Positions 15,421-48,485 of a stretch of 51,775 nt of DNA are shown one piece after another. A program made the translations under genes and the position numbers. The stretch's first letter is position 1. Each line of letters opens with the position of its first letter. This DNA comes from Escherichia phage vB_EcoP_06. The notes beneath the pieces were generated by a model. It made no database searches, was not told where the DNA came from, and saw only the letters and a program-made list of their open reading frames with translations. The stretch lies in the sequence record PP532814.1; one strand, written 5' to 3'.

Positions 15421-15464
15421 ACTATACACGATCTTGCGGTGGGCGTTTAGCAAAAAGTGCTATT
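15421..15464 (-). promoter_or_regulatory. phage promoter box variant + 17 bp + -10 TATAGT (minus strand), upstream of lipoprotein gene
   Basis: AATAGCACTTTTTGCTAAAC on minus strand. Confidence 0.45.
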
Positions 15465-15834
15465 CTTGTTCTTTTTGTTCTCCGGTGTTCTCAAATCTGC
15501 GGAGTCTTAAATTTAGCTCAAAAATCGAACAACAATAGAGCGCAATACATACAGATAAATATATATACATACATATAAATCAATAAGTTAGTAGTATATA
15601 TATTCATGTTTGTTCTTTATTGTTATCTATGTTTTGTGTGATTTTGTGTGTCTGGTGATTTTTCTGTGATTATGCATGTGTCAGTGGTTATGTGTGTCTA
15701 TATATCTATATCCGGCGCAAATGGAGGAACAAGAGAACAAAAAGACAACAAAGGTATTTATCAATCACTTACATGTGAATTTTGTTATCCAATTCTCCTA
15801 GAACGTTGTTAGAACAGAAAAAACAAAATAACTA

Positions 15835-15862
15835 TTGACTAAACGCATCAAATAGCTACAAT
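15835..15862 (+). promoter_or_regulatory. sigma70-like promoter for the recombination module (TTGACT-16-TACAAT)
   Basis: Hexamers TTGACT and TACAAT separated by 16 bp, about 30 bp upstream of the exonuclease ATG. Confidence 0.5.
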
Positions 15863-15891
15863 GCAGACATACCAACCAATGAGGGCAAATC

Positions 15892-16953
15892 ATGAATAAG
15901 TTTATGGCGTACACCAGCGAAGAAATGAGCAATGAGCTTTATCACGATCCAGAAGCGTGGACGGCTGATTATGTTAGTGGATCAAGCCTTGCAGAGATTT
16001 ACAGCACATGCCCGGCGGCGTGGAAGTTCAAGCCGCGCGACGACAAGAGCAAGGCGCTAGTTTTCGGTACGCAGTCGCATACCAACTTTGAAAGCAAGGA
16101 GCTTTTCGAAAAAACATATCGACGTGCGCCAGCGCCAGAAGACTTTAAAGATCTGATAACCAGCCAAACGGCGCTTGCTGCAAAGCTGAAATCATTTGGC
16201 CTGAAAGGTACAACCGGAAAGACTTATCCAGACCTTATCAAAATGATGGTGGATTGCGGAGAAGATCTTAACGTTATGTGGTTGATTGAGATGATCGCAG
16301 AAAGCCAGGCCAGGGCTGACGGCGTGCAGCTAATCGAATCTAAAGATTACGATGCGTGCGTGGCAATGCGCCAGGTTCTGGAATCAATACCGGAACATAA
16401 CGCATGTATGAATAGCAAGACAGCACAACGTGAATTATCGTTGTTCGGTGAAATCAACGGCGTAAAAGTCAAAGTGCGATGCGATCACGTTGACGTAACG
16501 AAGAACGTAACAGCAACTTTGATTGATGGTTACGATGAAAAAGGCCAGCCGATTTGCCGCGATATTATTTATCCAGAGGCGATTGTGATCACTGACTACA
16601 AAACAACAATGAGCGCTAATCCGGCTGAGTTTATGCGCCTGGCTTACAATCACGGCTATTATCTGAAAATGGCGTTGCAATGTGATTTATTCAGGAAAGC
16701 GTATCCAGAAGAAAAGCGACCTATAGTTGTGCGCCTGTTAGCGCAAGAGAAGAAGGAGCCTTACTTGCCGTTAGCTTTCCGCATGAACAGCGAGCAATTG
16801 AAGATCGGGCGCATTCAGTACATGAGCGTAATTAACCAGTTTGCCATGTGCCAGCAACATGACGTTTGGCCTTCGTATTCAAACGGCGAGCCGGAGGTTT
16901 GCCTTGACACACCTGATTGGGTGCGCCGCCAGTTTAAGCAATATCTTGTTTAA
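15892..16953 (+). CDS. PD-(D/E)xK family exonuclease (RecE/RecB-like recombination nuclease)
   Basis: Motif VITDYKTT (D-x-K nuclease signature); first gene of a module followed by Erf-like and SSB genes; sigma70-like promoter upstream. Confidence 0.55.
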   Translation: MNKFMAYTSEEMSNELYHDPEAWTADYVSGSSLAEIYSTCPAAWKFKPRDDKSKALVFGTQSHTNFESKELFEKTYRRAPAPEDFKDLITSQTALAAKLKSFGLKGTTGKTYPDLIKMMVDCGEDLNVMWLIEMIAESQARADGVQLIESKDYDACVAMRQVLESIPEHNACMNSKTAQRELSLFGEINGVKVKVRCDHVDVTKNVTATLIDGYDEKGQPICRDIIYPEAIVITDYKTTMSANPAEFMRLAYNHGYYLKMALQCDLFRKAYPEEKRPIVVRLLAQEKKEPYLPLAFRMNSEQLKIGRIQYMSVINQFAMCQQHDVWPSYSNGEPEVCLDTPDWVRRQFKQYLV

Positions 16954-17034
16954 ACAGCACAAATAGCTAAACAAATGAAAGATGCGGTGTTATAATTCAC
17001 CGCATAAGTTAACAATAAGCGTGAGGAAATAAGC

Positions 17035-17313
17035 ATGGAAAATAAACAAGTTTCAGAGGTAGCAGTTCATATTAATAATTTTGCAACTGGCATGGCTATG
17101 TTGCTTCGTGACTTTGTTGCGCCGCTTGATCCAACGGCAGGCGAAGAAGAAATGGAGTACATCAGAAAAGTAATGGATGCAGTCGATAACGTCGTACTTA
17201 TTGCAACAATGAGCGAAGACAACGATGAAGCAATCAAGGCGGTAAAAGAAAGTTCTGATCGCATGATGGAAAATCTGATTAAATTACACACCAAAGAAGA
17301 AACAAAGCATTAA
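17035..17313 (+). CDS. hypothetical small acidic protein (92 aa)
   Basis: RBS GAGGAAATAAGC; Asp/Glu-rich; between exonuclease and annealing protein. Confidence 0.4.
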   Translation: MENKQVSEVAVHINNFATGMAMLLRDFVAPLDPTAGEEEMEYIRKVMDAVDNVVLIATMSEDNDEAIKAVKESSDRMMENLIKLHTKEETKH

Positions 17314-46299: not shown

Positions 46300-46306
46300 A
46301 CAACTA

Positions 46307-46328
46307 CCCGCCAAATGGCGGGTTTTTT
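46307..46328 (+). terminator. rho-independent terminator separating early block from packaging genes
   Basis: Hairpin CCCGCC-AAAT-GGCGGG followed by TTTTTTAT. Confidence 0.75.
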
Positions 46329-46379
46329 ATTGTTTGCAATTTGTCTATAATGAGTCTTTGTTATAAAGGAGGGCGCATT

Positions 46380-46901
46380 ATGGCTAAAAACGTTGAGCCA
46401 GCAGTAAAGGCTTGCAATTTTAAAAAACTATATAATAAGCAATATGGCGATATTGCAAAAATGACAAAGGCGCACAAGTACACGCCGGAGCAGGTATTTG
46501 ATCTGGCTGTCCGTTACTTTACTTGGGCTGAGGAAAACCATATACAGGCTGCTGAAACGGCATCCTTTCAGGGTGACGTATACGAAAGCAAGATTCACAA
46601 GCCGCGCGTGTTCACCTTAAATGGATTCCGCTTATTCGCTGGTCTTTCTGCTTCCGTGCTTGAAAAATGGCGACGCGAGCCAGGATTCAGCGATGTTATG
46701 GACTTTATCGACGGCGTTGTTTACGAGCAAAAATTCCAGCTTGCTGCAAACAATATTGTTAACGCCGGATTCATTGGTAAAGAGATCGGCATTGAAAAGC
46801 CAGCCACCGTTACCATTGAGAATAACACAAGCGCCAGCGTTGACGCTGTAACGGCGGAGGAAGTCAAAGAGGCGGTAATTGACATTCTGGAGAAGATATA
46901 A
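46380..46901 (+). CDS. terS: terminase small subunit (putative)
   Basis: 173-aa ORF with RBS AAAGGAGGGCGCATT immediately upstream of, and overlapping, the large terminase gene. Confidence 0.55.
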   Translation: MAKNVEPAVKACNFKKLYNKQYGDIAKMTKAHKYTPEQVFDLAVRYFTWAEENHIQAAETASFQGDVYESKIHKPRVFTLNGFRLFAGLSASVLEKWRREPGFSDVMDFIDGVVYEQKFQLAANNIVNAGFIGKEIGIEKPATVTIENNTSASVDAVTAEEVKEAVIDILEKI

Positions 46902-48469
46902 TGCTGATTTGGGAAGACTTAACAGCGGCGCAAAAACGCGCCGTTAAGGAAATGAGCGAATATTCATTCGAAAAGATGATCCGCATTTGGTTCCAACTTC
47001 TCCAGGGGCAAAGGTTCTTGGGAAACTGGCATTTCAGCTACCTATGCAGCGAAGTTGAAAAAATCATCAAAGGAGAGTCACAGAATGTAATTTTCAACAT
47101 AACGCCAGGCAGTGGTAAAACAGAGATATTCTCGATCCACATGTCACCTTATGCGTCATTGAAAAGTAAGAAGGTGCGAAATCTTAATCTTTCGTTTAGT
47201 GATGGCCTTGTCCAACAGAATAGCAACCGCATCAAAGAGATTATTGGTTCTCCAGAATGGCAGGAGCTATGGCCTGGAAAGCTGGCAAAGGCGAGCGCAA
47301 AGGATTTGATTGTAACAGATGGCGGCAAGGTTAAATTACAAGTCAACTCGCGTTCTATTGGTGGTCAGGTTACTGGTCTGCGTGGCGGATACATGGACGA
47401 TGGTTTTACTGGTATGCTGGTTCTTGATGATCCAGACAAACCGGATGACATGCTTTCTAAGGTGAAGCGCGAAGCCGGACATATGCGCCTAAAGAACACG
47501 GTGCGATCGCGTCGAATGAAGGACACCACGCCAATTGTGATGGTTCAACAACGGCTACACGTCAATGATTCAACGTGGTTCATGACAAACGGCGGCATGG
47601 GCGGCATCCAGTTTAAGGTGGTTAGTATTCCGGCGCTCGTTACTAAGGAATACCGCGAAACGCTTCCTGACTGGTTAAAGCCTGAGTTTGATCGCGATGT
47701 TTTGTCCAGTAAGCCAGTGATGATTGATGGTGTTGCTCATTATTCGTTCTGGCCTGCTAAGGAAAGCGCGGAGGAATTACTTGCACTTCGAAATGCTGAT
47801 CCGTACACGTTCGCTAGTCAGTATCAGCAACAGCCTGTTGCGCTTGGCGGTAACGTGTTTAAAACAGAGTGGTTCCAGTATTACGGCAGCAGCGAGAAAT
47901 GCACGCTACCAAAACCGGATCGCTTTGAATATACATTTATCACGGTTGATACCGCGCAGAAAACAGGTGAGCTTAACGACTACTCCGTGATATGTTATTG
48001 GGGGATGTATAAAGATCGTGTCTACTTCATTGATGGCGTTCGCGGAAAATGGGAAGCACCGGACCTTGAGACGAATTTTGTTGCATTCGTTAATCAGTGC
48101 TGGAAGCGCAATAAAGAATGCGGAACGTTGCGAAGGATTCATGTTGAAGATAAATCGTCTGGCACTGGCTTGATTCAGAGTGCAGCGAAAAAAATCATGA
48201 TCAAGATCAATCCCGTTCAGCGCGATAAAGACAAGGTTACTCGTGCAATGGATGCAGCGCCAGTAATGCGCGCCGGACGCGTAGCACTTCCAGAATCGCA
48301 TCCTATGCTGGCTGAGATACTCGCTGAAGTTGCGGCGTTTACATTCGATGATAGCCATCCTCATGATGATATTGTTGATAACATCATTGATGCGGTTAAC
48401 ATTGAAATGAACATGGCAGATGATCCGGTAGGAAGAATGAAAAAACTGGCAGGTTTGCGGAACAAATAG
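46901..48469 (+). CDS. terL: terminase large subunit
   Basis: 522 aa; ATPase motifs (Walker A-like NITPGSGKTE, Walker B-like MLVLDDPD) followed by nuclease-type acidic residues; position before portal. Confidence 0.8.
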   Translation: MLIWEDLTAAQKRAVKEMSEYSFEKMIRIWFQLLQGQRFLGNWHFSYLCSEVEKIIKGESQNVIFNITPGSGKTEIFSIHMSPYASLKSKKVRNLNLSFSDGLVQQNSNRIKEIIGSPEWQELWPGKLAKASAKDLIVTDGGKVKLQVNSRSIGGQVTGLRGGYMDDGFTGMLVLDDPDKPDDMLSKVKREAGHMRLKNTVRSRRMKDTTPIVMVQQRLHVNDSTWFMTNGGMGGIQFKVVSIPALVTKEYRETLPDWLKPEFDRDVLSSKPVMIDGVAHYSFWPAKESAEELLALRNADPYTFASQYQQQPVALGGNVFKTEWFQYYGSSEKCTLPKPDRFEYTFITVDTAQKTGELNDYSVICYWGMYKDRVYFIDGVRGKWEAPDLETNFVAFVNQCWKRNKECGTLRRIHVEDKSSGTGLIQSAAKKIMIKINPVQRDKDKVTRAMDAAPVMRAGRVALPESHPMLAEILAEVAAFTFDDSHPHDDIVDNIIDAVNIEMNMADDPVGRMKKLAGLRNK

Positions 48470-48485
48470 CACGAATCGACAAACC
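48465..48485 (+). promoter_or_regulatory. degenerate promoter box (AATAGCACGAATCGACAAACC) between terL and portal
   Basis: Box-like sequence followed closely by TATAAT and then a hairpin terminator; atypical spacing. Confidence 0.3.

Follow-up and report, generated by a model that had tools for sequence, protein, structure and literature searches.

Which protein reads a 21-nucleotide box that recurs about 20 times along a phage genome? The question is raised by Escherichia phage vB_EcoP_06 (sequence record PP532814.1; 51,775 nucleotides, all of which were analysed and are called the window below), in which an earlier note, made from the sequence alone, had described a family of such boxes standing in place of the -35 element of non-structural genes. 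A 23-kb query from the window (23000-46000) matched Shigella phage pSf-1 and Escherichia phage KarlJaspers at 94-96% identity, both being placed in Hanrivervirus (Tempevirinae, Drexlerviridae), which identifies the window as a T1-like virulent phage. T1-like phages are not known to encode a polymerase or sigma factor of their own, and few sigma70-type promoters can be found in them. We report here that the box is by its sequence a marbox, the binding site of the MarA/SoxS/Rob/RamA family of activators, and that its placement is that of a class II promoter.

Copies of the box were collected by matching the 21-mer AATAGCACTTTTTGTTAAAAC at up to three or up to five mismatches, then by a position weight matrix (PWM) scan, and then by a scan for the marbox pattern. 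Sixteen matches with three mismatches or fewer were obtained in the window, against 0.03 expected, and 19 with five or fewer; the PWM scan returned 21 copies, and copy number 22, with one marbox mismatch, lies at 16953-16973(+). The family of about 20 that the earlier note had placed between 15421 and 48485 is therefore real, at 21-22 copies, and those inside that range stand, while two more lie beyond it, at 1073-1093(-) and 4833-4853(-). These two, in the structural region, are the only copies whose orientation is not that of the following gene.

An xAxxxT hexamer follows the box in 18 of the 21 copies, at 18 bp in 15 and at 17 bp in three (CATAAT, TATAAT, TATATT, TATAGT and similar). When the copies were aligned on the -10, information was found only in the box itself (-51 to -31), in a G at -14, in the -10 hexamer and in C-1/A+1, and upstream of the box there was no conservation. 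The place of a -35 element is taken by TAAAAC, which matches TTGACA at only two of six bases, indicating that the -35 element is absent, and canonical sigma70 promoters were not enriched around the boxes (39 against 41 expected, and 22 against 37 expected). Transcription starts, predicted from the -10 hexamer and a conserved CAT, give predicted leaders of 22-35 nt. These results agree with the earlier account, which had counted about 17 copies 17-18 bp before a -10, seen no TTGACA-like -35 and compared the layout to that of activator-dependent promoters: a good -10 is combined with an asymmetric conserved box across the -35 region, and the boxes head most non-structural transcription units, as had also been claimed.

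Perfect matches to the marbox as defined by the Grainger laboratory (5'-gcannwwntgnnaaa-3') number 20 in the window, against 0.4 in shuffled sequences, and 6-20 in each of T1, Rtp, CF1, NJS1 and AAM37, whereas Klebsiella phage RSU-F4K5, which is unrelated, has none. The 15-bp sequence gcactaattgctaaa, given as the 'consensus marbox' by Sharma et al., is present at 15 of 15 positions at 23207-23221(-), in the copy 23205(-), and occurs exactly in copies of T1 and Rtp as well. The marbox fit begins at the second base of the 21-nt box. An older 20-bp marbox consensus, AYnGCACnnWnnRYYAAAYn, is reported to go back to Martin et al. 1999; with it, the majority base of the pooled phage boxes agrees at 13 of the 14 specified positions. 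Across the eight phage genomes over which promoter statistics were pooled, the bases that the consensus specifies are nearly invariant, and where the boxes vary, in the TTT/GAA/TAA/AAA triplet and at the T/C of TTG(T/C)TA, the consensus has N, W or Y. The repeat as such has already been published. What appears to be new is its recognition as a consensus class II marbox: in the literature searched, no earlier link between marboxes and T1-like phage promoters was found.

The geometry of the phage unit was compared with that of class II marbox promoters, in which a forward-oriented marbox lies across the -35 region with its centre between -36 and -55; for RamA at micF, a centre at about -41 and the site pattern CACT-7N-AAA have been reported. 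As read in E. coli K-12, micF runs ACAGCACTGAATGTCAAAAC, 18 bp, TAGAAT and 7 nt to the annotated MicF 5' end, and the phage unit runs ATAGCACTTTTTGTTAAAAC, 18 bp, (C/T)ATAAT and 6 nt, then A. The two boxes are identical at 15 of 20 bases, both contain CACT-7N-AAA, and orientation and spacer are equal. At rfaY, the validated class II marbox at -41, 19 nt before TATAAA, stands one base nearer its -10 than that of micF (17 against 18 bp from the end of the 20-bp marbox). The motif scan that the earlier note had proposed for this genome and its relatives yielded about 120 perfect marbox sites in the eight pooled genomes, of which 101 have a -10 at just these distances from the marbox end (18 bp in 90, 17 bp in 11), the phasing of micF and rfaY; only six other spacings were found. 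Counted from the predicted start, the phage 15-mer spans -47 to -33 with its centre at about -40/-41, within the class II range, and every promoter-type copy reads GCA...AAA toward its -10 and downstream gene, as micF does. By a rough estimate that allows for many host factors, a random conserved 20-mer would be expected to match this host site, orientation and spacing included, in far fewer than 1 of 1000 cases.

The predicted marbox promoters of the window, with the genes or open reading frames (ORFs) in front of which they lie, are as follows.

15414-15464 (-): box 15444-15464, 17-bp spacer, -10 TATAGT at 15421-15426, predicted +1 at 15414; ahead of 15120-15389(-) and the genes downstream.
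16953-17003 (+): box with one mismatch, GCACAAATAGCTAAA, 17-bp spacer, -10 TATAAT at 16991-16996; ahead of 17035-17313 and the Erf/SSB genes.
23694-23744 (+): box AATAGCATTTTTTGTTAAACG, 17-bp spacer, -10 TATTAT; ahead of the helicase operon.
26218-26269 (+): perfect box, GC hairpin in an 18-bp spacer, -10 CATAAT; ahead of the Dam methylase gene 26297-26998.
27259-27310 (+): perfect box, hairpin with a 7-bp stem, -10 CATAAT; ahead of small ORFs and the HNH endonuclease, phosphoesterase and lysis genes.
30942-30993 (-): ahead of 30694-30930(-).
33110-33161 (-): variant box AATAGTATTTTTTGTTAAATG; ahead of the helicase-like gene 31505-33088(-).
33786-33837 (-): spacer hairpin; ahead of 33375-33761(-).
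35187-35238 (-): ahead of 34935-35162(-) through the Dcm methylase gene.
35684-35735 (-): ahead of small leftward ORFs.
36822-36873 (-): box within the 3' end of ORF 36840-37055(-); ahead of 36518-36790(-) and later genes.
37950-38001 (+): spacer hairpin; ahead of 38027-38413.
38413-38464 (+): ahead of 38499-38893.
38950-39001 (+): long GC-rich leader, directly after which no ORF is evident; candidate target gene 39201 or 39448.
40335-40385 (+): GAA subtype, 17-bp spacer, -10 TATAAT; ahead of 40409 through the polynucleotide kinase gene.
41553-41604 (+): ahead of 41629 through the P-loop NTPase gene.
42855-42906 (+): GAA subtype, strong spacer hairpin, -10 TATAAT; ahead of 42930-44199.
44198-44249 (+): -10 TAAAGT; ahead of 44275-45112.

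Four further copies deviate from this pattern.

1073-1093 (-): box directed opposite to the structural genes, shortly before the major capsid gene; a -10 is missing at the standard spacing.
4802-4853 (-): box against the structural genes, with only a weak -10, TAGCTT, facing the bidirectional terminator behind 4104-4766.
23174-23225 (-): box with the exact published consensus marbox GCACTAATTGCTAAA, containing the stop codon of a regulator gene and lying ahead of the primase gene.
48465-48519 (+): degenerate box with the TerL stop codon inside it; a strong terminator comes next, at 48497-48519.

Standard promoter context is lacking at 1073(-), 23205(-) and 48465(+). At 23205(-), the box is followed by a true terminator hairpin with a T-run, between the regulator and primase genes, and the -10-like hexamer, TATCAT, sits in its loop; the T1 orthologue of the element is annotated as a terminator. 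With 23205(-) and 4833(-) set aside, about 16-17 clean promoters are left, plus 16953(+). The box at 48465 is not a promoter in the window phage, and Rtp has a functional-looking copy at the equivalent position. The reverse-facing copies occupy the gaps before the major capsid gene and after gene 4104-4766, a placement kept in T1, TLS, Vc1 and Motto: the 4833 copy is kept in T1, and the 1073 copy in T1, TLS (as DR7), Vc1 and Motto. From the 4833 copy only a very short antisense RNA would result, stopping at the bidirectional terminator.

The spacer between box and -10 had been said often to contain a GC-rich palindrome. In the window, 'often' holds for only six of the 21 copies, whose spacers fold at a free energy (dG) of -5 kcal/mol or below; the palindromes are nevertheless enriched over the background, since about 4-5% of random genomic 22-mers fold as well, and in the eight genomes hairpins occupy 21-75% of promoter spacers against 4-11% of the background, an enrichment of 5-40 fold present in all eight. 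The stems differ in sequence, and the 3' arm stops at the first base of the -10. Several of these hairpins are annotated as rho-independent terminators in the T1 record; in the window, two obtain a terminator score in which the -10 region supplies the T-rich tail, and 23205 is a full terminator, most spacer hairpins being followed by (C/T)ATAAT only. The hairpin of the 27259 promoter, with its ATAATTATTT tail, scores as a terminator, and so does, on the opposite strand, the hairpin followed by GTTTTAAC. Because it lies upstream of the new start, the hairpin would act only on transcripts arriving from the upstream gene, which spacer hairpins probably terminate, suggesting that hairpin units are compact terminator-promoter cassettes insulating each unit. 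For 13 of the 22 boxes, the upstream gene has its stop codon within or adjoining the box, frequently as the TAG of AATAGCAC or an overlapping TAA, so that coding sequence and promoter overlap (examples at 26220-26222, 41555-41557, 42857-42859 and 48467-48469), and this embedded stop codon may explain the invariant AATA prefix of the box.

Conservation was also observed downstream of the predicted start. In most box promoters the predicted first transcribed bases, A(T)CGA(A/C)AACGA at +1 to +11, directly before the ribosome-binding site, are conserved in the eight genomes (for example at 38001-38011 and 36812-36822(-), and in T1 and Rtp) and could be a leader, translation or stability signal. 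The leaders 38464-38498 and 39001-39060, which belong to the promoters 38413 and 38950, are related to each other, GC-rich and structured-looking, of the form CATAG(G/A)(G/C)GGGCGGCA...

Four features bear on the question of what reads the box and what transcribes the genes without it.

23208-23681 (-): gene of a Cro-like regulator with a single helix-turn-helix (HTH), a core gene of T1-like phages.
23733-23760 (-): canonical-type sigma70 promoter of the Cro-like regulator gene, TTGAGT-16-TATAAT.
27505-27747 (+): gene of a small protein, phrog_2817.
37405-37433 (+): near-consensus sigma70 promoter, TTGACA-17-GATAAT, ahead of the first rightward gene, 37465-37944 (DUF7174).

In the complete set of ORFs of 40 aa or longer from the window, T1, Rtp, CF1 and NJS1, neither tblastn nor a small family hidden Markov model (built from MarA, SoxS, the Rob N-terminal domain and AAM37 gp49) detected a MarA-like protein, and Pfam scans of 45 non-structural ORFs revealed no AraC, MotA, AsiA or sigma domain. 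Since no MarA/SoxS/Rob-type protein is detectable in the phage, the activator most likely comes from the host. Phages whose recorded hosts are E. coli, Shigella, Klebsiella, Citrobacter and Pantoea carry the same box, and its persistence across these five host genera fits a conserved host protein as its reader. The same promoters are present in the Pantoea myophage AAM37, one of whose proteins (gp49) is of AraC type, with MarA as its best solved-structure match; three close relatives of gp49 were found, and its DNA-contacting residues differ from those of MarA. The head and replication modules of AAM37 are shared with the window and other T1-like phages, so that this phage is not an independent occurrence of the box.

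The two phage proteins that the earlier note had put forward as box factors are not supported. The Cro-like regulator was modelled as a single-HTH Cro fold only, and its recognition helix reads QQTVNQW, NQTVQGW, PQAVEEW, IQVVQQW, LKTVWGW or FSGVRSW in phages with identical boxes, so that it is a poor candidate for reading a 20-bp site that does not vary. The HTH-phosphoesterase (28317-29429) falls in a PHROG annotated as DNA repair exonuclease, and its HTH match is below threshold. What survives of that proposal is its wording, 'a phage-encoded or host-modifying factor', which leaves room for a host activator, itself the simplest candidate. As a separate observation on the regulator, an invariant basic N-terminal motif, DKRTxNGNNGTRRGKD (residues 10-35), and a conserved C-terminal motif, FCRPDLRFDxNGK (about 107-121), are both better conserved than its HTH recognition helix, and the C-terminal motif is also present in a short AAM37 homologue. 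The box 23694-23714 lies within the 5' untranslated region of the regulator gene, and the -10s of the rightward helicase promoter and of the regulator's sigma70-like promoter overlap face to face, for which reason the two promoters would exclude each other; this layout (23694-23760) is kept in T1, Rtp, NJS1, Vc1 and Motto.

From these data we lean, by somewhat more than an even chance, toward sigma70 class II promoters activated by host Rob, MarA or SoxS. On this model, a monomer of the MarA/SoxS/Rob (RamA) family would bind the asymmetric 20-bp marbox at -50 to -31 and contact sigma70 region 4 and the alpha C-terminal domain, thereby recruiting RNA polymerase, which would read the -10 with the aid of G-14 and start at the A of the conserved CAT, 7 nt downstream. 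Of the possible host activators, Rob would be available in uninduced cells, and MarA or SoxS in stressed ones. Some promoters of the canonical sigma70 kind would fire unaided, among them 37405-37433, likely an activator-independent immediate-early promoter and a contrast class to the marbox promoters; the genes for replication, DNA modification and lysis and the small early genes would then be expressed from about 18 marbox promoters. The GC-rich hairpin, present in about a third of the units, would terminate or stabilise incoming transcripts and so insulate the unit.

Several observations weigh against activation by these host proteins. The box is more uniform than the host consensus demands, in the AATA prefix and in the TT before the G, which could reflect a more specific reader or the embedded stop codon; the Cro-like regulator and the phrog_2817 protein are found in every marbox-bearing genome examined (eight); and AAM37 is an example of a phage with an AraC-type protein of its own. 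Vc1 (recorded host V. cholerae) has 12 perfect marboxes and Motto (P. aeruginosa) 17, and should these recorded hosts be correct, it is less obvious which MarA/SoxS/Rob-type protein the host would supply. Rob is described as mostly sequestered and inactive, and MarA and SoxS are stress-induced. T1-like phages are fast-growing in unstressed cultures. The first three of these points would suit an activator encoded by the phage, be it the Cro-like regulator, the phrog_2817 protein (a candidate phage-encoded cofactor) or an unrecognised early protein, with the marbox likeness reduced to mimicry or coincidence. The regulator's own sigma70-type promoter, with a box in its 5' untranslated region, would fit autoregulation, and the TTGCTA variants of the box contain a partial dyad, TAGCA-N5-TGCTA. 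We nevertheless consider a phage activator unlikely: the regulator's fold and variable recognition helix speak against it as stated above, the gene of the phrog_2817 protein is itself under a box promoter, and a 20-bp host site is unlikely to be reproduced by chance together with its orientation and spacing. As the operator of a dimeric HTH protein the dyad was rejected, its right half being not conserved in AAM37 and the best-conserved core of the box being asymmetric.

The remaining explanations dispense with an activator or with the promoter. If the A/T-rich box made an UP-element-like contact for the sigma70 holoenzyme, the promoters would be constitutive, given G-14 and a good -10; the T5 and A4 tracts of the box and the conserved G-14 would agree with this, as would the growth of T1-like phages, which is good without any mar/sox/rob inducer. 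Although an UP-element-like role was also proposed by the authors who described the repeat in phage TLS (PMC11447400), we hold this reading to be less probable again than a phage activator, since the invariant positions contain G and C (GCAC, TG) and fit a specific protein site rather than an A/T-tract consensus, the box runs across the -35 region to -31 whereas UP elements sit upstream of the -35, and the E. coli promoters of the same layout, micF, rfaY and lpxL, are reported to be activator-dependent. Nor can TTG(T/C)TA stand in as a displaced -35, as it lies 22 bp from the -10, too distant for that role. We give only a small chance to the boxes being binding sites without a promoter role, either repressor 'stoperators', as the TLS authors suggested (PMC11447400), or decoys that blunt the stress response by holding host MarA/SoxS/Rob; with some 20 consensus sites on every genome copy, an infected cell would contain thousands of them, and the copies 1073, 23205 and 48465 lack a standard promoter context, but the rigid 17/18-bp spacing in 101 of about 120 sites, the co-orientation and the conserved start context are the signature of promoters, and the phage is virulent with no repressor gene evident. 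Least probable of all is a unit acting at the RNA level, in which box and hairpin would together serve read-through transcripts as a terminator, as a processing site or as an antitermination signal of the nut kind. Enriched spacer hairpins, several of them annotated as terminators in T1, and the stop codons within the box would be expected of such a unit, and GCACTTTTTGTTAA is loosely boxA-like; two thirds of the window copies, however, have no hairpin. Because conservation reaches the -10 hexamer and the start site and Rfam gave zero matches, a boxA/nut-like element was rejected. Because the hairpin sequences vary, no sequence-specific RNA binder fits, and an RNA-level function could account for the hairpins as an added layer and not for the box.

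Some neighbouring observations may be recorded. Between the divergent leftward and rightward early clusters lies a 409-bp AT-rich non-coding region (37056-37464) with many ATAACA/TGTTAT repeats, a candidate origin, pac region or operator array; it contains the sigma70 promoter 37405-37433, and no equally good leftward sigma70 promoter was found. An HNH homing endonuclease with an AP2-like DNA-binding domain (27838-28308) is inserted into the operon of the 27259 promoter, and HNH content varies among relatives of the window phage. GenBank records MG065636-MG065687 ('Campylobacter phage A15a, A123, ...') are 92-100% identical to the present E. coli/Shigella T1-like phage, and their Campylobacter jejuni host labels are for that reason probably wrong, the source being a contaminating coliphage.

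The broadest form of the proposal, to which we grant a real but slightly less than even chance, is that Drexlerviridae and the related Pantoea myophage have wired nearly all of their non-structural transcription to host MarA/SoxS/Rob, through about 20 consensus class II marboxes per genome and with no activator of their own. If this is true, the efficiency of infection would be tied to the mar/sox/rob state of the host (bile salts, salicylate, oxidative stress, clinical mar mutations), strains constitutive for MarA or RamA could support the phage better and a triple marA soxS rob mutant could do so less well, and replicating phage DNA would titrate MarA/SoxS/Rob away from host genes. Common coliphages and Klebsiella phages, some of them in therapy collections, would then be linked to multidrug-resistance regulators, and about 100 natural near-optimal class II marbox promoters would be at hand for the study of this activator family. 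The marbox reading offers a concrete and cheaply testable mechanism for a conspicuous 21-nt repeat.

Among phage systems, the T4 middle promoters are alike in keeping a sigma70 -10, in having an activator box instead of a -35 and in sharing one box among many promoters. The T4 MotA box has its centre near -30, 11-13 bp from the -10, and a different sequence, and both MotA and AsiA are required. The present box differs in ending 17-18 bp from the -10 with its centre near -41 and in its unrelated sequence, and MotA and AsiA domains were absent from the 45 ORFs scanned, so that the analogy to MotA drawn in the earlier note is not supported. At lambda PRM with cI, and at the Mor- and C-dependent promoters of Mu, the activator lies across -35/-42 and touches sigma region 4. 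Those activators are phage-encoded dimers on dyad-symmetric sites, whereas the present box is asymmetric, of monomer type and of host type. UP elements, as in strong phage and rRNA promoters, are A/T-rich, precede a functional -35 and lack an invariant GCAC/TG; the present box has both invariant motifs, reaches -31 and replaces the -35, none following it. Stoperators of the mycobacteriophage L5 type are repressor sites dispersed within the transcription units of a temperate phage, at no set distance from a -10; the present box keeps a fixed 17/18-bp relation to a -10, and no repressor or integrase is evident in the virulent genome. A sigma54 promoter (GG-N10-GC; TGGCAC-N5-TTGC) was likewise rejected, the box reading TAGCAC-N3-TTG(C/T) with the wrong spacing, no GG and a sigma70-type -10 at a fixed distance, and the FliA (sigma28), sigma32 and sigma24 consensus sequences and the OmpR, Fis, IHF and ArcA sites misfit in spacing or key bases.

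The element is the same as the 21-nt direct repeat aaATAGCACnnnTTGnTAAAA of phage TLS, which occurs there in about 18-21 copies, co-oriented with transcription, about 76 nt before start codons, in TTT, GAA and AAA subtypes, and was seen too in T1, Rtp and Rogue1 (PMC11447400). Its authors found only three sigma70-like promoters, considered stoperators, enhancer-binding sites or UP elements as its role, and did not mention a marbox, MarA, SoxS, Rob or a fixed spacing to a -10 (PMC11447400). The closest counterparts are the E. coli class II promoters micF, rfaY, lpxL and fumC, served by MarA, SoxS, Rob and RamA, which likewise have a weak or absent -35. To their layout the phage units add the AATA prefix, G-14, the CAT start, the A(T)CGAAACGA leader and the optional spacer hairpins; and whereas host marboxes are described as degenerate, this virulent genome carries about 20 per 52 kb, nearly all of them near consensus.

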